Shown in pieces: positions 22,273 to 37,522 of a stretch of DNA of 64,000 nucleotides (positions within the stretch are counted from its first letter, which is position 1; each line of letters begins with the position of its first letter). The stretch covers positions 9,920,001 to 9,984,000 of the forward strand of contig CP158635.1 of NCBI GenBank assembly GCA_050273025.1, given 5' to 3'. The stretch is from Cenococcum geophilum (lineage: Eukaryota). The notes beneath the pieces are model-generated. The model saw only the letters and a program-made list of their open reading frames with translations. It did not search any database and was not told the origin of the DNA. A program made the position numbers and the translations under genes.

Positions 22273-23283
22273 CTACAGCTCGCCTGAGCTGTCTGAATCC
22301 TGCATCACTATTTCCTCGGCCTCTTTCCCCTTGCCCCCCACAGGACTAAAGAAATCCTTGAAGACCTTCACCAACAACTCATCACTCAACTGCATATGTC
22401 CCCCTTTAGTCTCTCTAAACACCAAACCTCCCTTCTCGTCTAACTTCTTTAATCCCAGCCAGTCCTCCTTGTATATTGCCCGATTCCGCAAAGGTGTCAC
22501 AATCCCACTGGTAAGGTTCGTCACTTGCGCAAACCACCCACTCTCCTTTGGTATCACCGTCGTATCGTCCTTGAACAAGTACATGACGAACTTATTCAAG
22601 CTAGCAATATTCGCAGCGTATTTGGTGTTCTTCAGAACACGCTCGTTATTGATATCAGCCAGGAAATTTGAATTTTCGAGATACTCAGGCGTCGGCTCCC
22701 CGGTGCTAGTATTGCACGAACGATAGTATTGCGCAGGCACAAGCCGCGATTGAACGTAGTTCGACCAGGTATTCACCCTCAACAACGCCATGGCGCCTTT
22801 GCAGAGCCAATCCGTAGGCGCGCAAGCCTGGAACTCGGCAATCCCGTTATGCTGGCTCCCGAACGTGACCAAGTTCCGCACCGGCGGGTTGTTGCATCTC
22901 TCCACATATCCTCGGAGGAACTGCCCGCCTTGCGAGAATCCCAAGGCATTGACGGCAGGCGCAAGCGAGAGGACGGGGTGCACAGCTAGGGTGTCGCATA
23001 CTTGAGCCAGCTGCTCTGTGAGATTGCCGAAGAAGGTTGCGGTGCGGTCAGAGCCTGGGTCCTCGTCAAGTCGGATGTTGTAGACGTATGTGCCGGGGTT
23101 CGTTTCATTGGCGAGTTCGCCAACAGAGACGAGCCCATCAGCGGCGTAGTTGTCGCCCAGGCCGTGCCAGATTATGAGAGGTAGAGGTCGGGAGGGTTTT
23201 GTGAGAGTGGAAGGGATGGCGGAGGCGGAGGCGGAGCTTAGGAAGAGAAGAGTGGGAACGGAGAGATGCATTGGGAGATGCAT
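22273..23283 (-). CDS. Palmitoyl-protein thioesterase 1 family alpha/beta hydrolase
   Basis: Signal peptide, IIWHGLGD, nucleophile elbow GFSQGG, TFGSQHNG and GGHM. Confidence 0.93.
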   Translation of the reverse strand: MHLPMHLSVPTLLFLSSASASAIPSTLTKPSRPLPLIIWHGLGDNYAADGLVSVGELANETNPGTYVYNIRLDEDPGSDRTATFFGNLTEQLAQVCDTLAVHPVLSLAPAVNALGFSQGGQFLRGYVERCNNPPVRNLVTFGSQHNGIAEFQACAPTDWLCKGAMALLRVNTWSNYVQSRLVPAQYYRSCNTSTGEPTPEYLENSNFLADINNERVLKNTKYAANIASLNKFVMYLFKDDTTVIPKESGWFAQVTNLTSGIVTPLRNRAIYKEDWLGLKKLDEKGGLVFRETKGGHMQLSDELLVKVFKDFFSPVGGKGKEAEEIVMQDSDSSGEL

Positions 23284-23448
23284 CTTCAGGGCCCTAGGGA
23301 TAATCAGAGAATAAACATGGATATAGTTATTCGCGGAGAATAAGAAAGCGTGTGGTGGGTTGGTGACGGAGCTGAGCCCGGTAAGTTCACTTACGAGATG
23401 CCGCGCAGGGTGGAGATCTTCTATGACGTTCGTAGTTAGCGCCGCTTG

Positions 23449-23720
23449 TTAGCGCCAGTGTCTTTCAACGACAAGGCTGACTGCCAAATTATCGCTCTCC
23501 AGGTCTACACCAATAAATTCAGCATAGGAAGTTTTACACAAGAATGCCTTCTAAACGTCTTCAGGTCTTCCATACCTCGGCCGCGTAATAATTTTTGTGT
23601 CAGGCGCCAGACCGCCCAAGATATCAAAATAGTGCAAATTCCGATCACGACGTTGAGTACTAGACCAATCACGCTGATCGTGTCGCTTACGGACAGAGAG
23701 CGATGGACGATGGCTGTCAT
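23449..23720 (-). CDS. Single-TM microprotein, family member 1 (66 aa)
   Basis: Exon 1 23720-23576 (145 nt), intron GTATGG..TAG, exon 2 23504-23449. Product MTAIVHRSLSVSDTISVIGLVLNVVIGICTILISWAVWRLTQKLLRGR|DLESDNLAVSLVVERHWR*. Supported by four paralogues. Confidence 0.78.
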
Positions 23721-24098
23721 AATAATTGCGATGAAATATCAACAAAGCAGCTGTAGATTGGGGAGCCAGCAGAGGACTATTTAAGGACGTGGGTAGGTGC
23801 AATTGTGACCGACAATGCCCACAGCGCACGGATCACACCCTCTTTCGAGGGCAGGGCTTTTTCCGAACGTTGATCCGACTAGTCCTAGGCCGGGTTTGGC
23901 CATGGCCCGCCTGGGGTGCGCGGATGAATCGTGGCTGAGCAGGCCGCTCGTGCACGTGACGTGTCTCTGGAGCTTCCAGCATCGCCGGTCCCTCCAGCTT
24001 TTTCAAGGATGAGAGGGCATCTGCAGGGGTTGGCTATCCAAGCATTAGGGCCACTCTGGCACAGGCGAGCCACTCGCTAATGTCAGCCTACCATTATA

Positions 24099-24522
24099 AC
24101 GTGTGTGACCACTCCCTGGGCCACACCAGTCCTCGGGCCGCTCCAAAAACCACCAAAAATCGGGAAAATCGCATCTTGATATCTCAACAACGGCTTTATA
24201 ATAAATTCTAAAATTCCATAGCTAGCCTTTCATGCCCATTCTAAGACTCCTATTAAAGTTCTAGAATAATAAGCCTAGCCGTTATTAAGATATTGAGTTT
24301 TGGCCCCAAATTTTTATCTAAATTGCTATTCCTCTAGAACTACTTAATGAATTACTTCCAAAGTCAGAGTAGAGTCTTAGAATGGGCATAAAAGGCTAGC
24401 TATGGAATTTTAGAATTTATTATAAAGCCGTTGTTGAGATATCAAGATGCGATTTTCCCGATTTTTGGTGGTTTTTGGAGTGGCCCGAGGACCGGTGTGG
24501 CCCAGGGAGTGGTCAAACACGT
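24099..24522. mobile_element. Pogo/Pot2-like MITE with long TIRs (424 bp)
   Basis: TA|ACGTGTGTGACCACTCCCTGGGCCACACC... / ...GGTGTGGCCCAGGGAGTGGTCAAACACGT|TA. The inverted repeat extends about 150 bp. Confidence 0.88.
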
Positions 24523-25137
24523 TAACCCGCCGCGAGCGGCACGTACATGTAGATCAAGGCTTGGTACGTCAAGTCATATGCGGTCGGCGCTATTACGCAA
24601 AGCATATCATAGCTGACGCCCACTCTGCGGATGTGAACCGAGACCCTAAAAGAGATGTCTGGGTGAATCAACGGCCGACACTCTAGGCTAAACAGGCGAT
24701 GCCGCGAGCAAGTTCACACGGCGCCAATCCTACCAAAGAGAATTGGCTTCCTCAGTCAGCACCTACGAGTTTTATAAATCGTTTACCCTATTCCCGTCTA
24801 AAGCTGCGGTTCCTCTTGTGCCTATGCAGTTGCCTCAAGACTTGATTTTCATACAACTAGCCGCTAATAAGCTAGCCCACAGCCCAACAAACCAAAGCTA
24901 ACCCCTCCATAACACCTTAGGCTTATCAACATCGACCTTTTCTTATAAAATCCAGCAAACCCTTGAATAGAGTTTAGAGAACATCTCTAATGCTGTAAAA
25001 GCACCAACGTAGTCTTTAATGGGATAACACAGGCAATGTAACTTCGCGTCAGACGGCTGTTCCTATTTTATCGTACACGCAGCATTTAACATCTTCACTC
25101 AAGGCCTTTATCGCCACGCTTCTGCTCCTCACCTCTA

Positions 25138-27158
25138 ATGCCTCTATGCAAGTTCTGCCAGAATATATCTCCAGAAAGCCTCACAGCGGAATGGCCCCAC
25201 CAGCTTGCTAGTGGCCTAGAGGTTACTAGTTCCGGGTACGAGCATCTCACAAATTTCGAAGATATCCCAGCATCCGCGCGAAGCTGCGCAATGTGCAAAC
25301 TGCTTCTCGACAACTTGAAAGGACCCACGATGAAGCTAAAACCGCATCGAAAACCGCACAGTATTATCCTCATGTCCGACACTCACAGAAGCAGCCAGAC
25401 GGTACCGTGCGGCGTTGCGGGTATCACAGCCCTCGTTAAAAATTCGGACTTGAGGGCGTATTTTCATCTGTATACGCTGCCAGGTTAGAACGTGTTAAGA
25501 TTGTTAAATTGCAAAGGCCGTAGGCTAACATCCTTCGTACGCTAGACTTCCCGGCTGCATTGTCGGGAGACATTACTGGACGGCAAATATCCTCTGACCC
25601 TGGATCCGAAGAGTCTATTCAAAAAGTACTTTCATGGGTTCAAAAATGCTGTGAAGGCCATTCTGAGTGCGGATATGACGACGTTATGGATCGGAAAGAT
25701 GGGTTTCGCAGATATCCTTCTAGGCTTCTCGATGTTAGTTTGCCGCCTTTCGACAAGTCCCCATTTTGTGTTCTGGTAGACGGAAAGGAGGCGCCAGGCC
25801 ATTATATTACCCTGTCTTATTGTTGGGGAAAAAGCCAGGCACTGCGGACTTTGAAGAGTAACTTATCTAAGCACAAAAAAGGAATCCAAGCGGACGAAAT
25901 GCCCAAGACGCTTCAAGATGCAGTAATTGCCACCCGAAACCTAGGGGTCCGCTTTCTGTGGATTGATGCCCTATGCATCGTGCAAGACGATTCCTCAGAA
26001 TGGACTAGCGAAGCCCTACATATGGGCCGCATCTACCAGAACTCCTTCTGCACAATCGCAGCTGCAGGATCCGACTCTTCAGATGGTGGTCTCTATATAA
26101 CCCGTCCGAGCTACAACGACGTAGTGGCATTTCAGTACACTCCGAAGGCCGCGGGCAGTGTTAAAGCACAGAGCGAGTTCTTCATCCGCCCAGTACACCA
26201 TACGCTTCTCAATCGGGTCCAGGAGTCTACATGGAATTCTCGAGGTTGGATTCTTCAAGAACGAATACTCAGTCGTCGCATCGTTCTCTTTGGCTTTGGC
26301 CAGACATTCTTCGAATGCCAGCGTCATAGCATTGGGGAGGACGGTCGGGACCTTGGTTACTACGAGCACAAACGTTTCGGCAATAAAGCCCTTCCGCAAG
26401 GAGAAGACTGGGGCTGGTGCCTTCTGGTTGAGGATTACACGCGGCGCGTTTTAACAGAGCCACGGGACAAACTATTTGCGGTAGCGGGTCTGGCTTCAAA
26501 CATGCATTTGCGTACTGGCAAGAAATATTGCGCAGGGCTGTGGTGCGAAAGACTGCCACTTCACACCCTTTGGTATGGCCAAGATGGTAATATGAAAAGA
26601 CCCCCTTTCAAAAGAGCTCCCTCATGGTCCTGGGCTGCTATGGATGGTGCAGTAATGTGGGAGCCATGGGTCTTGGATGCCAGGGATAGGTGCGAAATGT
26701 CAATACTGGAGCAATTCCATGGATTAGATCCCAGCTCTCCAAGTCTCCCGGACACTTGGATCGAAATTTTGGGTCAGGTCACTCCAGTCGGCCGCTCGGA
26801 TTACACCCTTTTTATAGAAGGAAAAAAGTCCGGGCTCGACTGCAGCATGCTTTATTTGATCGATATCGATAAGCACACGAGATGCTATGCGCTTCTGGCA
26901 AATACGAAGTCAGATGGACCTCGTGAGAAGATTGGTTGGGCTGTGTTTGATGAAGGTGATCATGTCGATGGGCCTTTTGTAGCTGCTTACGTTTCAGAGA
27001 ACAACGTGGATAACAGTAAGAAAAGCAATTCAGCCAATGTTATAATTCTCAAGGCATTGCAGGATCAATCAGGCCAATTTGAAAGGGTTGGGTTGGGAGA
27101 GATAATCTCATCGGAGTGGTTTGATAATGTACCCAAGGAGTCTATAAGAATATACTAA
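25138..27158 (+). CDS. HET-domain (heterokaryon incompatibility, PF06985-type) protein, 2 exons
   Basis: Exon 1 25138-25483, intron to 25545, exon 2 25546-27158 in frame. HET motifs YITLSYCWG, PKTLQDAV...VRFLWIDALCIVQD, MGRIYQNS and WNSRGWILQERILS; later APSWSWAA. N-terminal LCxxC/CxxC. Confidence 0.92.
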
Positions 27159-27608
27159 TATAATGAAATACTCCACAATCTCCCTTCAACCACCAGCAGT
27201 ACCTAACCCAACAGAATCCCATGTAGCATGTGTAATACACAAACTTTGAATGTGTCATTCAAGAAACCAGAACAGCCCGCCCAGGTGGCGAGATCGAGCT
27301 CGAATTGTAGCTACGAGTTCGCTAAAATAGACGAGGCCAGCGAGCATCTAGAGCCTCGATGTTCCAGAAAAGAACTGATATCTGCTCGGAACCGAGAGAT
27401 GACAACTTTTTATGGTGTGGAAATTTATCGTAAGAGAGGTTAGGTTTGTTGGTGAGGCCGGCGCCACCATACAGAATAGTGTAAGCTTGCTAGAGAAAGG
27501 CGGAGATTAGCTTAGCATTTTATTACATTGAGCATAGAAAGTATTTAAATTAGACACAACCGATTGCTTCTTGATATGTGTCAGGGTTGAATGGAGGAGG
27601 TACCTTTG

Positions 27609-27885
27609 TCATTGCCTTCTTCGACCAAATACAAATCGAAGCTCGAAAGATGGGTCCATATCTACTTCATTTAAGTAGGATGTCAATATGAGAGTCACTT
27701 CTAATATTGGTGCGCTTAGAGGACTAGCAAAGTTGGATACCTCTTTGTCTATGACTATTTCGATGGAGCCTATAAGTCACTCCGGCGATGAGTACTGAAA
27801 GGAAAGCCAAGATGACCCCAGAAATATCGAAGCTGAGATTGATCAGGTCGCTACTAGCCAGCGCACGGTTGTGAAGGACTGGCAT
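27609..27885 (-). CDS. Single-TM microprotein, family member 2 (65 aa)
   Basis: Exon 1 27885-27741 (145 nt), intron 27740-27662, exon 2 27661-27609. Product MPVLHNRALASSDLINLSFDISGVILAFLSVLIAGVTYRLHRNSHRQR|DMDPSFELRFVFGRRRQ*. Confidence 0.78.
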
Positions 27886-28831
27886 GATGCTAAAGTAATG
27901 TGAAAGGTAGAATAGAGGGTCAGGCTTTATAATCGCCGAAAGACGCAGATGGAAGAACAATTCGAACTAAGAATTATCAGTGGCCGGAGCAAGATCGATA
28001 AAGAATATTATGGCCAGTTCGCTCATGCTGCAAAAGGTCAGTACTTGTATTTTCCATGAATGTGGTTGGACCATTTAAGTCGTTGTTCTGTGGTGCTAAC
28101 TCGTGCAGAGCCCGGCAACAGGGCTACCCAGGAGAGTATGTGAGTATGCACGATGAGAGAGTATCTCACGAGTCGTGCGACTATATGGTTGGCTAGCGCG
28201 ATCGGTTGCGCAATACATGACATGGACTTCACCGTTAAGGTACGGTAGATCTTTGTACAGCCACCTGGCAAAGAGCAGGGCTTTGCGGATTACAGAAAAA
28301 TTAGCGGCGTGCTGGAAAGCGCGCCATGCCAAAAGCGAACACGGGCTGCGTGGCGCCTCTGAAGCGGACCAGTTAAGCTCTGCTCAGAGTGCTTGGCTGC
28401 TTTGAGAAGATTTTCGTCAAGCTTGAAAGCGGAGGAGCGGTCTTAAGTGATTCTTAAGCGATTCTTGATTTGCTGCCAAGATAAAAGGGCAAGTGACAAT
28501 CCGCCTCTACGCCCACTTCCTTGCATTACCTGCCGATCGTCGTTGTCTATGTCCGCCAATCCCGCCCTCTGCCAACACCCCAGTAACTAACCACCCTCTC
28601 ACGCCTCTATGTGTATATATAACTAACCCCCCTCGGGGTGAGATGCAGTTCATGCGGACAAGACTGCTTATAAGCTCGAATATTTTAACTATAATATACC
28701 AACTAGAATTTTATCAAGTCTTACATCTCTGCACTACAATTGTCAACCCACACTCTCAGCCCTGTTCGCAAAAGACAATCATCATTATCCCGATGGTGGA
28801 TTAAAGGTCAGCCCATGGCACTAAATCGAGC

Positions 28832-29121
28832 ATGATATTCCTCATCGCGCGGTCTTTATCAGAGGATAGCAGAATTAACATCGCGTTCGGCATCCTCGCT
28901 TTCATCTTGTCCCTAGTCTCAATCATCGTCGGGATTGCTACTTGGCGTGTCCACCATCGAGCAACCACGCACACCGATGGTGAGTAGGCTACCATCAACT
29001 GAGAAGTTCTGCATCTGATGGAACCAATGTAGATGTTGAGAACCACCCGCTTTATGACTTTGAGATCAGAATCGGAAGGAGAAGAGAGCTTCAGCGAGCT
29101 CCTTACGGTAGTGGTGCCTGA
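28832..29121 (+). CDS. Single-TM microprotein, family member 3 (78 aa; absent from the ORF track)
   Basis: Exon 1 28832-28979, intron GTGAGT..TAG 28980-29032, exon 2 29033-29121. Product MIFLIARSLSEDSRINIAFGILAFILSLVSIIVGIATWRVHHRATTHTD|DVENHPLYDFEIRIGRRRELQRAPYGSGA*. Confidence 0.8.
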
Positions 29122-31663
29122 GGATGGTTACGAAGTGAAGCAGAGAATCTCTCTGGAAGCTGGCTCAAAATGGTTTAGGGTGCGGCCTGAGGTCGCGCCG
29201 TAAACTAGTTTCGGAGAGAATATTTCTAGTAAGATCGCTTGCTTCCAGAAGCGCATCGTTGCATTTTAAATAGAAAACTTTCTGCCCACGCCCAATCCTC
29301 TGATTAAGTAATTATCTCAATCTGAACTCCTAATCAATTCTCACATCTACCTTATACGTGTAGGCCTTGGTGCCGCTGAAAATCTACTAATATTATTAAC
29401 TAAATAGCGCAGCACCCCTTTTTCTGGTGCTAAGTTCCTGCTGCTTTAAAGCTTTGCTGCGGCGTGCAGCACATCATAAAGGACAATGGAGCGAACCCCT
29501 ACCTAGCATGGAGCCGTGACCCTGTCTAGCCTGTCGAGAGCAGTGAGCCCTAGAGGGTAAATTTGGGCATCCAGAGTAGCGAAGGCTAGAGAAGCGGTTT
29601 GTTTTTCAGCAGGAACGCCTTGTCGAGTTCGCCGTTTTGATGCAACCCTGCCGCTTCGACAAATTAGTGCTTAGCAACGCCGCCAGACCCTCATGCAGCC
29701 CTGTAGCATGCGGTTAGTAAAGTGCCAAAATTACGGCCCCTCGCTGCTCCCATCGCTGCAGGCTCGGCAGCACACCCCCCCCCTTCGTACGCAGCCCGGA
29801 CATCTTCACCTCCCGCCAGTGGCCCCGCGCCGCCGGCCTCAGCGCTAGTAAAATAAAAGCCAATCATCATTGCGTACCCATGCTACACAGGAGGATTTGG
29901 GGCTAGCGCTGGGCTAGGTGAAAGATAAGGGGACTGTGGGGGAGTTTGGTGTCGTTTCGTCGCAGCTCCAGCCACAGCAATTTAGGCGCCAAAACAATTG
30001 CAGTCTCAGGGCGAGGTTGATAATCTTTGAAGATTGCGAGCGGGTGGTGAGTGATTGATAACCTTATTTGCTGGCACTCCCACGCTGGGCAACACAAATG
30101 TCAGAGTCGTCAGAGTGGAGGATGACGGACCTCTGATGACTTTGTATTGTACTGACACCGTCAACCGTGTAATCAAGCGAAGTGCGGAGGGCTACAAGAA
30201 GGCTGCCAATCGCGGTACAAGATGCCTGCCAATTTCCTACCAGCCTGGCGAACCACCTACTGAGCTGCTGGGGCTGTGATCCGTGACCAAGAAGCTCTGA
30301 GGATAAGAGAGTGCGGGGCATCGCCGACAGACCCCTAAGCGAGAAATTAAATTACGCAGCGCTGTGCAGAAAAGAGTAGAGTTTGGTGGTCCTTCAGCGG
30401 CTTCCCGGCGAAGTCGCGGTCGGCTTTGGATATTTGGTAATTTAATTACGGTCTATTCACCATATACACGCTTAGTACTGGATTTCTGGGGTTCTGGAAC
30501 CAGACATCGACAAAGAGCATCCTGCACACTTTTTAACTACTCTGGAATAGTATTCGACATCAAATATTCTTCGCTCTAGCCGTCATTACGACAGTACTAC
30601 AAAAATAAAAAGGGCTAAAGCGTCAAGCCGCAGCCCTAATCCCAACAAGGCCATACCGCCTACAAGCAACTTCAAGGAGCAACGATCTACCAGCTTATTA
30701 TGTTCATAAGCTGCAAGAATTATGCCAAGCTTAACATGCAGGCGTGGGACACTTTTGACATCGTTATACACTTAGAATTGCGTTTCTAGCCCATCAAGTT
30801 GAAGTGAGGGGTATCGTAAGGTCGCGCAGCAGACACGAATCAATCGCATAAAACATCGGTGTATTATTTCTGGATACTAGAGGAAACAATAAGCTCTCAA
30901 TTAGTGACGCAGCTAATGCACACCTGCTGGAGTAATGATAATGACAACCTAGCAGAGACAACTTGTAGCATGGAACCTCGCGCAATGTTTGCTAATCCAG
31001 GCCGCTTATGTGTTTGGCGAATAGATAAATGCTGCGCTGCCTGCAAGCTTGATCCGGGCAGTGACTCTGTAATTCCTAGCTAGGCGATTTTATTCTCTCT
31101 TGTACTCCTCGTATTGGAATGGTTCCGCATGTTGTTTGCAATGGTCTTTCCGTTTGGATTCCTTAGGATTTTTGGGCAGCCTACTGTAAAGAAGTCTGTC
31201 AGTGTATGAATTCTATCATGCGATGAAGTAAGGCTTACCCACTTGTTTGGCTGAGGGGCCGGTGTATCGCAGTGCTTCTCATTGCAATACCATGGTCATC
31301 AAGAGCTCGTGACTAGCTGCCTGAGAGGTCTTCTGCTGAAAAGCTCTAATCCGTAATTCTCTTGGTGCATTGCAGGTATAGAGCCCCTGGTTTCCTGTTG
31401 TCCATTGCCATGCGATTTGTCCTGTGAAAACGAGGCATACCCGGTTAACACTATTTAGGTAGCGTCTGCATGGGCGAACCTGCATGGCTCAAGCTCTCCT
31501 TGAAGATAGCCGCAATACAGACAGGACCCGAAAAGGATAAGGGCGACTTCGAGTCTGGCTGACCGAGCCTCGTTGAAGATACCTGTGGTTGCAGGCGACG
31601 TAGGAGTCCGACTAATCCAGCAGGAAAAGTGAAGGTTTATAGAGCCTACATGTAGACTATAAA

Positions 31664-32104
31664 TCAAGGGGGATCGGAGTTTGGCTCCATAGTCGGTGAT
31701 GCTAATGAATTTTTCGTGCTGCTAAGGTTTGAGGGTTGGAAGTGAACGAAGCGGAGTTTAAATCGTTGGCGGCATTTGGATTGCGGCGCAGGGGCCATGT
31801 GAGAGATCGTCCATTCCATTTTCGGATTGGCGCCTCCTAGCGCTGCCTTCTTTCGACGACAAGGCTGAAGACAGCATCCATGAGACTCGATATCTAATTT
31901 GCGAGGGCATCTATCAGAATCTGCTTTGCTTTACTGGCTGGGGCTAGTAAGGTCCGTACCATTTTGCCGTTGACCCCGACAAGTGACCTTCCAGGTGACT
32001 GCTGCTATGACTATGGCTATTACTGAACACACGAATGCGACGAAGACCCCGATTAAGTTAATCTCGTCGCTGCTCGATAACGCTCGATCTCTGATTATGC
32101 ACAT
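31664..32104 (-). CDS. Single-TM microprotein, family member 4 (exon-2 frameshift; possible pseudogene or tail variant, 124 aa)
   Basis: Exon 1 32104-31960 (145 nt) encodes MCIIRDRALSSSDEINLIGVFVAFVCSVIAIVIAAVTWKVTCRGQRQN; intron 31959-31894. Exon 2 starts DIESHGC, then one extra base puts the homologous VFSLVVERRQR* (stop 31839-31837) out of frame. Confidence 0.68.
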
Positions 32105-32301
32105 TTTGACCCTTGAAGATGCGATCAAAGGAAAACGGTAATGAGAGGTAGTCGCCTAAGGTCAGAAGAGACTTTACGAGAGCGGCACGAAGCATTCATA
32201 AAGTCGGGAATTCGCTGTTTTGCGACATATACAGTTCTGACGTTAAATATCAACCCTTTATAACTCACGGGTTGACAGCTTAGCCCGGAGTTTAACGGGT
32301 A

Positions 32302-32449
32302 ACGTATGACACGGGGTTTTGCTCGTCCCTGAGTTTTGTTTTGATTTGTACATCAAATTCCGCCGAAACGCCAGTTTGGTGGTAAATCGGGAGGCGGTCT
32401 ACTAGCGCAAGCAAAACTCAGGGTTCGAGGAAAACCCCGTGTCTCACGT
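32302..32449. mobile_element. Small Pogo-like MITE (148 bp)
   Basis: TA|ACGTATGACACGGGGTTTT..CCCTGAGTTTTG / CAAAACTCAGGG..AAAACCCCGTGTCTCACGT|TA. Confidence 0.8.
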
Positions 32450-33343
32450 TAGTAAGTTTGTGGCAGTGCTACTTCGAACGTGACCGAAAACTCGTCTACG
32501 TCTCCTGAACCAGCTGAATCATCTCTCCAATTCATACCTCCGAGAAGTTATACATCTTGCTTAGGTGGTACCCAAGATAATATGCAAACGTACCACGCTG
32601 TGGACAAAAAAGTTGGCACTGCGAAAATACCGCGAGATGTCCTCTCCCCAAATTTGTATGCGCAAGCACGAATACACCCATTAATCACGTCCTCTGAGCG
32701 ATAAGCGAGGCCACATTCGCTCGCCCCGCCGTGACCAGCGTGCTCCCTCGACGAATCGCCACCGCAGACCCGAGACTCAGCGGGGGGCTCTGCGCAAACG
32801 GCTGCCTCCCACAATCGCCAAATTACCACAATCCAGATTCTTCTCGCCCGATTCCCTACATAGAGCCAAAGAGTCAAAGAGCTAGAGGGTGGCCAGCTCT
32901 AAACCGCAGGGTTAACATTCAAAAGGAAGCAAGGAAGCAATCTCTAGAAAAAGCCTTACGGCACGAATTACGTCCTCTTTTAAGGCTAAAAAGCTAGTTT
33001 ACGGAAATAAAGGATTAGTATAACTGTTAGACTTTAGTGCCCGTGACCCAGAAGGCATTACTAAAGTAAAAGCGCTTTCTTTATGTATTAACATAAAACC
33101 TCTCGACCAGTCTCCTGTGGCCAACGGACGTGATAATGATGCCTAAAGCGGAAATGGGGATGCAGTCACCGCAACCACAGAGACGTCCGAAAAGCAACGC
33201 TGCCACAGGGATTCAGCCACCCCGCAGGTTGGTGCCGGCACGGTGGAGGAGCAACAGTGAACCGCACTGGACGGAGCCCACAACCACCCCGGCCGTAATG
33301 GAATGCCATCGCCCGCCGTTGCGTCTCGTATCGTTTATGGCAA

Positions 33344-33922
33344 TAGGGGGGTTTCGATGAACTGACGGAAGGTATCTGACGGAAGGTAAAGCTAATTTTT
33401 AGTGCTTACATATACATTTAGCGCGACCTTCCGTCAATTGGTCAGGTAGGGTTTCGATAGAGAGCGACTCTGGTTCATCAGGACCCCATCTTGTACGTCT
33501 TAGCGGCTGCTCTAGAGCCTCATTATTTAAGTCACACTCTATTCTGGTTGCCTGCTTAACAGTTTCGGTGATAATATTTTGGGGTTAGCGGCTTCAATCG
33601 GGCTCGACTTTAGTGGCGCTAGCGTCACGTCTCATTTGCTCCACCAGCTCGACGGTTCAATTAACTTGGCGCGCGGGATTAGAAGACATAGTGGCAAGGA
33701 TCAACTATGCGAAATTTAGAGTCGCTAGCTGCTGTAAACAAAATAGGGGGCTAGCTTGAAGTTCTAATGAAAATATTCATCAAAAACTTTTGATATTTGT
33801 CAAGATACAAATCTGACGGAAGGCCCTACTAACCATATACTACTAGTACGCGACGATCGCCTCGACTCGAGTTGCATTACCTTCCGTCAGATACCTTCCG
33901 TCAGTTTATCGAAACCCCCCTA
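33344..33922. mobile_element. Non-autonomous DNA transposon (TIR element, about 580 bp)
   Basis: TIRs of about 45 bp: TAGGGGGGTTTCGATGAACTGACGGAAGGTATCTGACGGAAGGTAA / TTACCTTCCGTCAGATACCTTCCGTCAGTTTATCGAAACCCCCCTA. Subterminal TGACGGAAGG repeats. Flanks ATGGCAA / ATGGCGA suggest a degenerate TSD. Confidence 0.8.
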
Positions 33923-34084
33923 ATGGCGACCTAGCGAATGGGAGAACCGTAACGCTGCACTTAAACTAATTTAATCTCATTTGATACGTTAATTACTAAA
34001 GACGCATCTTTCCTTGAATACCAAACCGGCACCTGCAAACCCCCCGTACCTCGCAAGCTTGGGCGACATGTGCCCCGCACTCTC

Positions 34085-35178
34085 GGTTGTAAATCAATCA
34101 ACGAGACTTCAATATTGAGTTGAGTTGGGTGCCAAGACCCAATCAATTCAACCAACTGAGAGTTCGCTGGCTTAGCAATTCAATCAATTTGGAGGCTCCG
34201 ATTGAGTTGAGTTGATTGAAGAATATTGAAGCTTTGATATTATATAGAAAATATTACTAGAGTTCACATAGAGCAATGCTTTAAGCCTTATTATTCTTAG
34301 TCTCGCCCACCAAAAATAGCTTACCCGAGCATCGCCCGTTGTTTACACCGTCATATCGCCGCCCGAGCCTTGGCAGGTGAGAGTCTTACTCCTAATTCTA
34401 CGATATCAATTCTACTACTACTAGTTATGGCTTCCAACGCATCAGATGATGGCTAAGCGAATACCTCAGTCCTTTCTACTGCTCGTTCTAATCCTACCGT
34501 ACCTACCAACCTCCAGGGCGCCTCAGATCAGTGTAATTGGCAATACCGACGCGTTAACTACCGAATTCGCACCAGAAGATTATGTAGGAATTGATCGGAC
34601 GCGTCTTCTTGGCTACTATATTTCTCATTCGACAACGGGCTAACGTCACGGGCCTACATGGCAGTACGGATATGATATTGAGCATAGCTACTCCAATGTC
34701 GTCAAACCCCGAACGTATATTTAGCCTTACTGGCTTGCTCCTTACTGCCAGTCGCGCACGACTACAATCTGATATAATTGGAGCTTCAATGGCGCTAGGG
34801 TCATGGGATAGGGAAGGCGTTATTAATATGGTAGATGGGCAGTTAAAGCGGCAGGCAAAGGAAGAGACAATATTGACGGGCGGGGAGGTGAGTCAACACC
34901 ATATCAAGACTCGCGATAGACCTATATTGAGAGCCGGGCGACAGGAAGGACAGTAGGAAATGATTTAGGCGTCGCTAGGTAGGTCGTCCTGCATCAACTC
35001 TATGCCAAGAACTCGTGATTGTTGCTGACTACTACACCAGTTGAACTCAGTTGAACTAGTTGCCAAGACTTCAATATTGATTCAATCAATTCAATCAACT
35101 GAGCTCTCTGCTTACAAAGCTTTCAATTCAATCAATTTGAAGCCTTAGTTGAGTTGAGTTGATTGATTTACAACCCTG
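34085..35178 (+). mobile_element. Internally deleted hAT transposon
   Basis: Termini GGTTGTAAATCAATC / GATTGATTTACAACCCTG with (TTGAG)n subterminal repeats and CTCTCGG in both flanks. Residual hAT dimerisation motif ILSIATPMSSNPERIFS...RARLQSDIIGASMALGSW at 34675-34810. Confidence 0.82.
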
Positions 35179-35328
35179 CTCTCGGGCTGTGACAAGGGTC
35201 GCCTCAGGGTCGAGTGGCCTGACGGACACTTGTAAAACCTGACTGACCTTTATTGGCTGGCATAAGTTAGTAGACTACACATTGAGCGCTAGCGATTGGT
35301 AAAGCCTCCGCAGACACCGATGACAACC

Positions 35329-36123
35329 TTATAGCTTAGGCTTGCGCTTAGATAGCTTCCACTTTGTACTGTAGTCGAAGAGCATATCCGCTTTCGCATA
35401 TTGGCGGTTAGTGCTCAAAGCGATGTTATGCGCGCTGATAAAGTCATTGCCAAGGATGTTAATATTGGCAAAGGGTGATGTCTTCGGTGATCTACGAACT
35501 GGATGGGGGTATCCGGCAATCTGAACAACTAGGGGGGTCCTTCCAACCCCTAAAAGTTCGGCCGCCTAGAGTTAAGTTAGCAGTTAGATATTCTCTTTAT
35601 AGATAGAAGTATTTACATGAGTTGAGAGGTACGTTAATGGGGCACCAGTGTGCACAATAAAGAAAACCCAACGAGCATTATCCTCAAAACTGACCACACA
35701 TGGAAATACCATACGGAACTTTGTGCCGTAGATAATACCAGCGATTTCAATCTTCTTGTTGGCCTCATCTTTAGTCGCCTTCTGGAGATATGGGATACCC
35801 AGGAGTTCCGCAATATCAGTTCGCAGCATATTGTCGCTCGTATAGTCGCTCATATCCGTGATTATGACATCGTGATCTTCGGGATCCACGCCCCCAATAT
35901 CATGGATATCGATGAATTCCCCACGCTCTATAGCCTCCTTGGCCTTCTTCTCAGTGAAGAAGTGTATTGGATTAGGTTCTGAAGAGAAGCGCCGATTGAT
36001 AGTCGCATAACTCGGAGGTCCAGAGAACGGGACTGGCTTGGTGTGGACATGGCGTATGAGAAGAGTATTATGGAGAGGGCTACGAAGAGCCTTGAGCGCT
36101 TGCTGTCTTGGGAGTCTCAACAT
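35329..36123 (-). CDS. Retropepsin-like (single-domain aspartic protease fold) protein with catalytic Asp replaced by His, 247 aa, 2 exons
   Basis: Exon 1 36123-35617, intron GTAAAT..CTAAC..TAG 35616-35566, exon 2 35565-35329. Motifs WVFFIV(H)TGAPLTYLS and NINILGNDFI. Confidence 0.7.
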
Positions 36124-36960
36124 AGCGGAGATTGTTAAAGGCAGGGTTGCAAAGGTAAGGAAACGTCGAGAGGTCTCATTTTTAAGTTTAAGAGACTTTA
36201 AAAATTCTTATAGTGTACCACTGTTTACTTAAATTTTCGGCAATTTTAGTGGGGCTCGCGTACGATATCTCACGAAACGTGGGGACCGCCATAATGGTTC
36301 AGGATCGTCTGGGAAGGATTCGACGCAGTGGGCTGTGGCATGCTATCGATGTGACCGCACCCTATGCACCCAATTTGGCCTGACGGACGAAGCTTGACCG
36401 TGTAGCGGAATCATCCGGTCGAGCTAGTGATAGAAAGACACTGCGTGTAACAAACGCCTTTATTGGAACTACAGGGGAGTTCGTTGCGATGCAGCGGAAC
36501 CCCCCTGCAACATTCTTGGCGCACGGAAAGCCCTGAATCACCATATACCCAGAGTGAAAAATTCTGATTCGCCTGCCCGTAATCTCCAAAAATCGCTCCC
36601 AAACCCAGGTCGTAGATCCACTTAACGTAGGTAACAGGGTTTTTGACTTGAACACTAAAGCTCGCCAAAATGCCAATTTAGTGGTAAATAACTAGTAAAA
36701 GCATATATAATAGTCTATAAAGTCGAATTTTATATAAAGGTCTACTATTTTTAATAATATATATTTTAAAAGCTTAGATTCTATTATATAATTAATAAGC
36801 TTTTAGAAGCATTTCTAGCCATTGTTATAGAGTAATTTATTAAATTATATAGGGAAAATTATAAAACACGTTGACGCGCTTAACAAATCTTGCGAAAGTG
36901 CCTCAGACGTGCTGGACCCCGGTCCGAGTCTGTGGAGTCCAAGCGCTGACAAACCCTTTC

Positions 36961-37231
36961 TCAGCGTCGCTTTTTGCCGACGACAAGGCTGAAGACATAT
37001 TCGTTCCCTTCCAGATCTGTGCGGGTAGGCCAATCAGTAATTGTTCGGCTGGGAGAATGGCAACGAACCTTGTTGCCGTTGCTGAGATTGTCGGTGCAGC
37101 CGCCATGTAGCAACAGCGAGCCGCAAGGTTGCTATTGCAAAAACGATCGAGAGTATTGAGGCAACGAAGGCGAACACGATGCCGACAATATTGATGGAAT
37201 CGCTGGTGGTGACTTTGCGGGGGACGAGCAT
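36961..37231 (-). CDS. Single-TM microprotein, family member 5 (72 aa)
   Basis: Exon 1 37231-37069, intron GTTCGT..CTGAT..CAG 37068-37017, exon 2 37016-36961. Product MLVPRKVTTSDSINIVGIVFAFVASILSIVFAIATLRLAVATWRLHRQSQQRQQ|DLEGNEYVFSLVVGKKRR*. Confidence 0.8.
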
Positions 37232-37375
37232 TGCGGTGTGTGTAGTATCTATAATGGACGATAGAACTTAAAGATAGTAGGCGGGTTGAAATATACCGAA
37301 CGATTTGAATATTTGCTAGCGTGGACTCGCATCCTGTGCCTTGGGGATTGAAGTTCTACTTATATGGCATGTAAT

Positions 37376-37522
37376 ATGGGGATTTTCCACATGGGATTTT
37401 CCACATGGGATTTTCCACATGGGATTTTCTACATGGGATTTTCTACATGGGATTTTCTACATGGGATTTTCCGCATGGGATTTTCCGCATGGGATTTTGA
37501 AAACCACATGGGGTTTTTCCAC
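37376..37522. repeat. 14-bp minisatellite (ATGGGATTTTCCAC)n, about 10 units
   Basis: Direct tandem units ending CCAC x3, CTAC x3, CCGC x2, then degenerate units. Confidence 0.95.

Follow-up and report, generated by a model that had tools for sequence, protein, structure and literature searches.

Five clustered genes from an unnamed fungal family of one-helix membrane microproteins in Cenococcum geophilum

The stretch analyzed here, referred to as the window, comprises 64,000 nucleotides (nt) of Cenococcum geophilum DNA (GenBank assembly GCA_050273025.1, contig CP158635.1, positions 9,920,001 to 9,984,000 of the forward strand), and all coordinates below are counted from its first letter. Within about 14 kb of it, five small two-exon genes, g1 to g5, encode proteins with one predicted membrane helix. 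These five genes are real, transcribed and mostly correctly spliced members of a conserved unnamed family. Judged by their protein sequences, they belong to a widespread unnamed family of one-helix membrane microproteins that appears to be Pezizomycotina-wide. Its members range from 55 to 120 amino acids (aa), and it is very probably a real protein-coding family. As far as our searches reach, the family, its motifs and its cluster of ancient paralogues have not been described before; single-pass membrane microproteins as such are a known kind of molecule. Overall, we lean towards reading g1 to g5 as ancient, expressed paralogues of an uncharacterized Pezizomycotina family of membrane microproteins, which would act as accessory or adaptor proteins by helix packing.

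Gene models and transcripts

A first-pass annotation had proposed five two-exon genes in this region, and all five ATGs were found where it had put them. The genes were modeled on the window sequence with simple GT..AG introns. g1 (23449..23720, minus strand) has exon 1 at 23720..23576, an intron of 71 nt at 23505-23575 and exon 2 at 23504..23449, encoding 66 aa. g2 (27609..27885, minus strand) has exon 1 at 27885..27741, a predicted intron of 79 nt at 27662-27740 and exon 2 at 27661..27609, encoding 65 aa. g3, lying on the plus strand at 28832..29121, has exon 1 at 28832..28979, an intron of 53 nt at 28980-29032 and exon 2 at 29033..29121, for a product of 78 aa. g4 (31664..32104, minus strand) is assembled from exon 1 at 32104..31960 and exon 2 at 31893..31664, which flank an intron of 66 nt at 31894-31959, and its spliced product has 124 aa. 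g5 (36961..37231, minus strand) has exon 1 at 37231..37069, an intron of 52 nt at 37017-37068 and exon 2 at 37016..36961, encoding 72 aa.

All five introns are GT..AG and all five are in phase 1, as had been proposed. In three copies (g1, g2 and g4), exon 1 has 145 nt, as had been stated; that of g3 measures 148 nt and that of g5 163 nt. The helix end of g5 is matched twice by overlapping profile matches, and this double match together with the 18-nt excess over 145 nt fits an internal duplication.

No complete member had been seen among the listed ORFs, but two of the five genes are already annotated. The 66-aa product of g1 is identical to GenBank K441DRAFT_251070 and the 78-aa product of g3 to K441DRAFT_653211, both uncharacterized proteins of Cenococcum geophilum 1.58. 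In homologue searches, the other three (g2, g4 and g5) matched solely metagenome or Logan open reading frames (ORFs), so that an NCBI source turned up for only two of the five. Incidentally, three 90-aa ORFs (P0004, P0005 and P0007) correspond to in-frame read-through of the g1 intron. They were treated as gene-caller products and rejected because the g1 copy in contig L001, whose read-through matches P0005, has an intron 1 nt longer. L001 and L002 are the two loci that a metagenome scan with g1 orthologues found.

Among 24 listed public runs, 20 contained half or more of the words sampled from a 10-kb stretch (15 of the 20 recorded as RNA; 17 studies). RNA was aligned to 23300-37400 as contigs of runs X1, X3 and X8 and as raw reads of X21, which derives from a diverged strain. 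Four of the five predicted junctions were recovered exactly. The joint 23504>23576 of g1 was present in an X8 contig and in five raw X21 reads, and the joint 31893>31960 of g4 in X1, X8 and ten X21 reads. The spliced joint of g3 and the joint 37016>37069 of g5 were each seen in X1, X3 and X8. Among first mates of X21, junction reads of g1 and g4 fall on the plus strand and reads across the intron of an intervening HET-domain gene on the minus strand, as is usual for a stranded library when g1 and g4 are minus-strand genes and the HET gene is a plus-strand gene. The g4 transcript contains a second intron at 31184-31238 (joint 31183>31239) and extends to about 30354, giving about 1.7 kb in total; beyond g4 it carries no other ORF longer than 68 aa.

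Protein anatomy, family extent and age

Family proteins start at a constant distance from the helix, commonly with M-P-P-[LI]-x-x. An N-terminal tail of about 16 residues closes with the helix-cap motif R-x-L-S-x-D-[DN]-x-I-N, in which R (84%), L (85%), S (71%), D, D/N, I (82%) and N (84%) are conserved. The N-terminal motif proposed for the five copies, searched as a regular expression in six frames of the 64 kb, gave exactly five matches, one in each of g1 to g5, and no other ORF in the window carries the family motifs.

The hydrophobic stretch that follows has a median length of 22 residues among 147 family sequences. Small residues (Gly, Ala, Ser or Thr) occupy profile positions 20, 23, 27, 30, 34 and 37 in 69, 92, 100, 100, 100 and 71% of these sequences, respectively, forming a 3-4-3-4-3 stripe along one face of the helix. 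The helix is closed by W-A-T-W-[RK]-L (W-x-x-W-[RK]) and then an arginine run. The helix cap, the 22-residue helix with its stripe, the W-x-x-W-[RK] closure and the basic run are all present in each of the five genes.

Lys and Arg together average 4.0 in the 12 residues after the helix vs 1.46 in the 12 residues before it, and the net charge is greater on the C-terminal side in 139 of the 147 sequences. By the positive-inside rule, which is well established, such a strong bias would leave the N-tail outside and the C-tail in the cytosol. The single-pass topology is thus likely to be N-out/C-in, in agreement with the orientation that had been suggested for the five copies.

The linker after the basic run is variable, with an acidic element of the type phi-E-L-[EQ] (phi, a hydrophobic residue), which is the D-phi-E that opens exon 2 in the Cenococcum genes. 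Tails of the main class terminate in G-Y-E-phi-x-phi-R-phi-G-R-x-x. A regular expression for this C-terminal motif has 23 matches among 142 proteins scanned, and 18 of them leave exactly two residues between the motif and the C-terminus. Held at a fixed position in this way, the motif looks like a short linear motif for a partner.

Exon 2 had been described as always starting with Asp and encoding a strand and a basic end. This description applies to g1, g2, g3 and g5, the same four genes in which a loose regular expression for the C-terminal motif has its only matches (exactly four) in six frames of the 64 kb. The main-class motif is recognizable in g2 and g3, whereas g1 and g5 carry a diverged S-L-V-V-[EG]-[RK] and g4 has none. 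Exon 2 of g4 opens with D-I-E, but its strand-like stretch falls in a different frame, so that the C-terminal motif is missing from the product. The same shifted frame occurs in P0016, a spliced g4-orthologous product from another strain, which indicates that the shift is real and not a sequencing error.

AlphaFold2 monomer models, built with family alignments for g1 and for a Leptodontidium protein, contain a confident membrane helix with block means of the predicted local distance difference test (pLDDT) of 82-98. A four-copy homo-oligomer prediction for g1 scored 0.16 vs a mark of 0.32 and gave no answer; the alignment was not used in it, and it counts neither way.

The family had been presented as one of five members. 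The five are indeed paralogues, but the family is not private to this locus. An exhaustive profile search of 1.84 billion protein cluster representatives retrieved 132 representatives at E ≤ 1e-3, of which 9 have E ≤ 1e-10. Word-based homologue searches gave mostly Cenococcum-like orthologues, and the wide family surfaced only in the exhaustive search. Organism names, from three fungal classes, were attached to 8 of the 30 family members looked up, all labeled hypothetical or uncharacterized. They are Aplosporella prunicola of the Dothideomycetes, Trichoglossum hirsutum of the Geoglossomycetes and, of the Leotiomycetes, Leptodontidium sp., Acephala macrosclerotiorum (two proteins), Stipitochalara longipes, Oculimacula yallundae and Tricladium/Hymenoscyphus varicosporioides. 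Class assignment was looked up for three of these taxa, and the remaining named genera are ones that we take to be Leotiomycetes.

A profile was made from 122 distant members, excluding every sequence with at least 50% identity over at least 30 aa to the window genes. Under this profile, the exon-1 ORFs of all five genes have E-values of 2e-16 to 2e-19, and the next of 1,828 six-frame segments has 0.14. In the ESM Atlas, g3 and the Leptodontidium member are nearest to the same Ascomycota hypothetical clusters (315, 63, 56 and 254 members; scores of 0.90-0.93), none of which has a Pfam family.

The view that no named family is involved was borne out by the database searches. No Pfam-A match reached the gathering cut-off among the 11 and 22 family members scanned. 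The best was Glycophorin_A (PF01102) on P0047, with 18.1 bits vs a cut-off of 30.1, and all others were weaker; at relaxed E-values, Glycophorin_A was matched by 3 of the 22 and 5 of the 11 members. A Salyut match (E 0.005, 17.3 bits vs 27) was disregarded as weak and lying partly over a translated non-coding 5′ leader. A profile search of the PDB gave no significant match, the best (E 0.011) being to one membrane helix of an adhesion G-protein-coupled receptor and the remainder at E ≥ 0.06. Structure matches in the ESM Atlas were generic single helices and were likewise disregarded. Literature searches, at the level of result listings, returned no description of this membrane microprotein family. 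The JGI numbers of g1 and g3 were absent from the supplements searched (12 of the 16 files of PMC5023957 and 9 of the 10 files of PMC5816826).

Incidentally, some Helotiales gene models or ORFs (P0017, P0029, P0121 and P0070) have the N-module or the C-terminal motif twice in tandem. Whether genuine tandem-domain proteins or adjacent genes that were merged, they suggest local duplication of the family in other fungi also.

Amino-acid identity among the five paralogues is 23-42%. Their proportions of synonymous differences (pS) are 0.72-0.87, which is saturated, vs proportions of nonsynonymous differences (pN) of 0.36-0.56, with pN lower than pS in 10 of 10 pairs. Because the silent sites are saturated, a ratio of nonsynonymous to synonymous substitution rates (dN/dS) is not computable between paralogues. 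No DNA is shared as repeats among the copies, and their introns are 0.44-0.61 identical, a value taken from forced global alignment of short sequences. Divergence of this depth marks the five copies as ancient paralogues.

For orthologues, the metagenome contigs were compared, and pN/pS was 0.33 and 0.27 for g1 and 0.15 for g2, with 6-12 substitutions per comparison. The proposal of purifying selection despite DNA divergence is consistent with pN below pS in all paralogue pairs and in all three orthologue comparisons, and the sequence comparisons thus support, within their reach, that the genes are maintained by selection despite deep divergence of their DNA.

Proposed role, surroundings and alternatives

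A face of small residues that stays invariant along a membrane helix would typically be a contact surface for other helices. Together with the C-terminal motif at its fixed position, the invariant face leads us to favor an accessory or adaptor role by helix packing, which we put forward tentatively. The small-residue face would pack the helix against other membrane helices, either of the protein's own copies or of a larger membrane protein. The basic stretch would hold the microprotein on acidic lipid, and the short C-terminal motif would recruit or regulate a cytosolic or membrane-proximal partner. In this way a family protein may serve as an accessory or adaptor subunit, as other single-pass microproteins serve pumps and channels.

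Several observations weigh against this account. First, the predicted intron of g2 had no spliced joint among the contig joints listed, to which this negative is confined, and a contig of 3.6 kb runs unbroken through 27604-28410; RNA contigs omit minor splice forms. Retention of this intron would yield a product of 53 aa without the C-terminal motif. Close relatives of g2 in public-run assemblies occur both in the spliced form (P0008 and P0009) and in the intron-retained form (P0010), and the g2 orthologue in L002 keeps the frame as well as the GT..AG intron. Second, g4 lacks the C-terminal motif, so that either the motif is dispensable in at least one transcribed copy or g4 is decaying. Third, some family members have quite different tails, of the classes E-L-Q-R-I...H-H-G-N-[YF]-V-x-L or [YF]-E-L-E-A, which makes a single shared cytosolic partner doubtful.

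Fourth, the modeled tails have pLDDT of only 51-57, being helix in g1 and coil in the Leptodontidium protein. The first-pass annotation had taken the tail for a cytosolic β-strand that oligomerizes or docks onto a partner by β-augmentation. Reading the alternating pattern as a strand is reasonable in itself, but neither model supports a strand. Fifth, the orthologue pN/pS values are based on very few substitutions. Last, a tree of the N-module (48 columns, FastTree) does not group g1 to g5 as a clade, and the node of their common ancestor spans 133 of 147 tips with support 0.73; a tree of 48 columns that splits the five copies is weak.

To the left in the window lie housekeeping genes, for Csf1, Vps52, Rrn7, ubiquitin-L40, an L1-family ribosomal protein and palmitoyl-protein thioesterase. 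The thioesterase gene shares its strand with g1, and its ATG follows the g1 stop codon at a distance of 165 nt (23283-23449). The pairing is kept in L001 and L002, and the two genes may have shared or overlapping transcripts. Between g1 and g2 is the HET-domain gene (25138..27158, plus strand; Pfam HET, E 7e-35), whose intron at 25484-25545 is supported by an RNA joint. The HET gene is treated as context only, as a role as partner is not indicated by the data. It is convergent with g2 (27158-27604), and the transcripts of both are merged in one RNA contig of 3.6 kb. The 3′ untranslated region of g2 contains an intron of its own at 27490..27603 (minus strand, 114 nt; joint 27489>27604, CT..AC) that begins 5 nt past the g2 stop codon and is present in X1, X3, X8 and one X21 read.

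Strain variation was examined in the two related contigs over L001:1-9866 and L002:4691-8668. On the housekeeping side, as far as 23852, L001 and the window share 96% identity; past this point L001 is unrelated. L002 keeps g1, the HET gene and g2 and is without g3; its HET gene has a 790-bp gap, window positions 25937-26726 being absent, and beyond g2 it contains an inverted segment matching 29167-29689.

Other features of the region were noted in passing. A palindrome at 24097-24524, between g1 and the HET gene, has 153-nt arms (24097-24249 and 24372-24524) that are 97% complementary and 122 nt apart. At its edges, with loose ends at 24366 and 24478, RNA reads and contigs continue into different sequence, so that it is probably a dispersed repeat resembling a miniature inverted-repeat transposable element. 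The stretch from g3 to g5 is poor in long ORFs. Two transcribed, spliced features without a Pfam match lie there, a 207-aa ORF at 35584-36207 (minus strand) and a unit at 34300-35200 (plus strand); the very high contig depth and loose ends of the latter suggest a repeat. A tandem repeat with a 14-nt unit, GGGATTTTCCACAT, occupies 37379-37498 in 8.6 copies with 97% matches and lies about 150 nt upstream of the g5 ATG. The right third of the window (40000-64000) is AT-rich, with a GC content of 0.28-0.41 vs 0.46-0.52 on the left, and may be repeat-derived DNA or DNA affected by repeat-induced point mutation.

Instead of packing against partners, the proteins could be self-assembling, viroporin-like pores or death effectors that oligomerize through the small-residue stripe into ion-leaking bundles and make up a polymorphic allorecognition or cell-death locus with the HET gene, in line with the allorecognition and toxin-like roles suggested in the first-pass annotation, a possibility that we judge unlikely. 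It draws on the position of the HET gene between g1 and g2 and on the differences between strains, namely the end of L001 synteny at 23852 and, in L002, the HET gap and the missing g3. In its general build, with a short N tail facing outward, a single helix and a tail in the cytosol, the protein would also resemble a type III viroporin. In a protein-language-model search, influenza M2 was the best named cluster at 0.76-0.77, which is rated a lead only, the bar being 0.9. However, the HET adjacency is a single case, and neither an NLR gene (NACHT or NB-ARC) nor another death-domain gene is among the 20 window ORFs scanned. No neighbor copies the C-terminal motif, as would be the case in an amyloid-signaling pair, and neither a channel-type polar residue nor His appears in the helix consensus. 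In 17 studies, RNA libraries contain half or more of the region's sampled words, which would be odd for a constitutive toxin. The possibility ranks second, after the adaptor role, and its support consists only of the HET neighbor, the strain variation and a sub-threshold viroporin likeness.

A bolder form of the same idea is that these genes represent an unrecognized class of fungal membrane death or compatibility determinants. Viroporin-like helices would bundle via the small-residue stripe, their diversified tails would be read by the linked HET-domain protein or other sensors, and the 14-kb array of five ancient paralogues would serve this dominant forest symbiont as a nonself-recognition locus that varies between strains. 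We regard this as a long shot.

It is also improbable that the ORFs are decaying or non-functional, being remnants of a larger gene or of a mobile element, or leader ORFs of neighboring genes, that are transcribed but unused as proteins. g4 is frame-shifted and lies on a 1.7-kb transcript without another long ORF, the g2 intron is retained in the contigs listed, g1 immediately precedes the co-oriented thioesterase gene, and three of the five genes matched only metagenome or Logan ORFs, all of which would suit relics. Yet paralogues with saturated silent sites have retained their amino-acid motifs, intact ORFs and intron phase, the family occurs in three fungal classes, pN is below pS throughout the 10 paralogue pairs and 3 orthologue comparisons, and no repeated DNA is common to the copies. 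Least credible are signal-anchored precursors of secreted or processed peptides, for which the C-terminal Arg/Lys runs of g2, g3 and g5 (e.g. G-R-R-R and G-K-K-R-R) would be dibasic processing sites and the clustering of small genes would be typical of fungal peptide precursors, since the charge bias (139 of 147) places the C-terminal portion on the cytosolic side, out of reach of the processing proteases of the Golgi, a median hydrophobic stretch of 22 residues is long for a cleaved signal peptide, and no biosynthetic enzymes are among the ORFs scanned.

The unusually conserved helix and the C-terminal motif at its fixed distance from the end together suggest a specific molecular interaction that can be put to the test. 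Gene callers routinely overlook small membrane proteins, and in the searches made here an NCBI source turned up for only two of the five transcribed genes. Definition of the family would better fungal annotation and open a tractable entry to fungal microprotein biology. If HET linkage and strain variation prove general, they would bear on fungal self/nonself recognition.

Comparison with known systems

In bacterial type I systems, with which the first-pass annotation had compared the genes, a small hydrophobic toxin is repressed by a cis- or trans-encoded antisense RNA. The host here is a eukaryote, and the merged convergent contigs of the HET gene and g2 do not count as an antisense regulator. 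In amyloid signaling of the HET-S/NWD2 type, a neighboring NLR gene carries the C-terminal motif of the effector again at its N-terminus. No such pairing was found here, as the regular expressions for the C-terminal motif match family genes only (64 kb, six frames) and no NACHT or NB-ARC domain is among the 20 ORFs.

Influenza M2 (Flu_M2), a type III viroporin, resembles the family in its short outward N tail without a signal peptide, its one helix and a cytosolic tail that opens with basic and aromatic residues. The family differs in belonging to a cellular organism, and the language-model likeness stays below the bar. The gating motif of M2 is H-x-x-x-W in the helix; in the family, there is no His in the helix consensus or among the top three residues per column, and Trp is at the cytosolic end. 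Glycophorin A (PF01102) likewise has small residues on one helix face as its dimerization motif, but the stripe of the family is a 3-4 heptad and not G-x-x-x-G, and there is no glycosylated ectodomain.

A further comparison is the HET-domain-linked allorecognition pair het-c/pin-c of Neurospora, in which het-c is reportedly a gene for a large glycine-rich protein, not a microprotein. Such a pair would combine tight linkage with allelic polymorphism under balancing selection. Loci of the het-c/pin-c type are reported to link a HET-domain gene to a membrane-protein allorecognition gene (PMC2988816). As regards linkage, a HET-domain gene likewise adjoins genes for single-pass membrane proteins in a strain-variable region of the window; linkage of this type was seen once (HET between g1 and g2), and structural variation in two related contigs.

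The phospholamban/sarcolipin regulins, FXYD proteins and yeast Pmp1 are single-pass regulatory microproteins of pumps or channels. Pfam and PDB searches found no sequence relationship with them, and unlike them the present family is multi-copy, clustered and strain-variable, with an N-cap and a C-terminal motif of its own. In general plan, however, it is like all three: a protein of 50-120 aa without an enzymatic domain, with one conserved membrane helix as the main element and a basic juxtamembrane segment.

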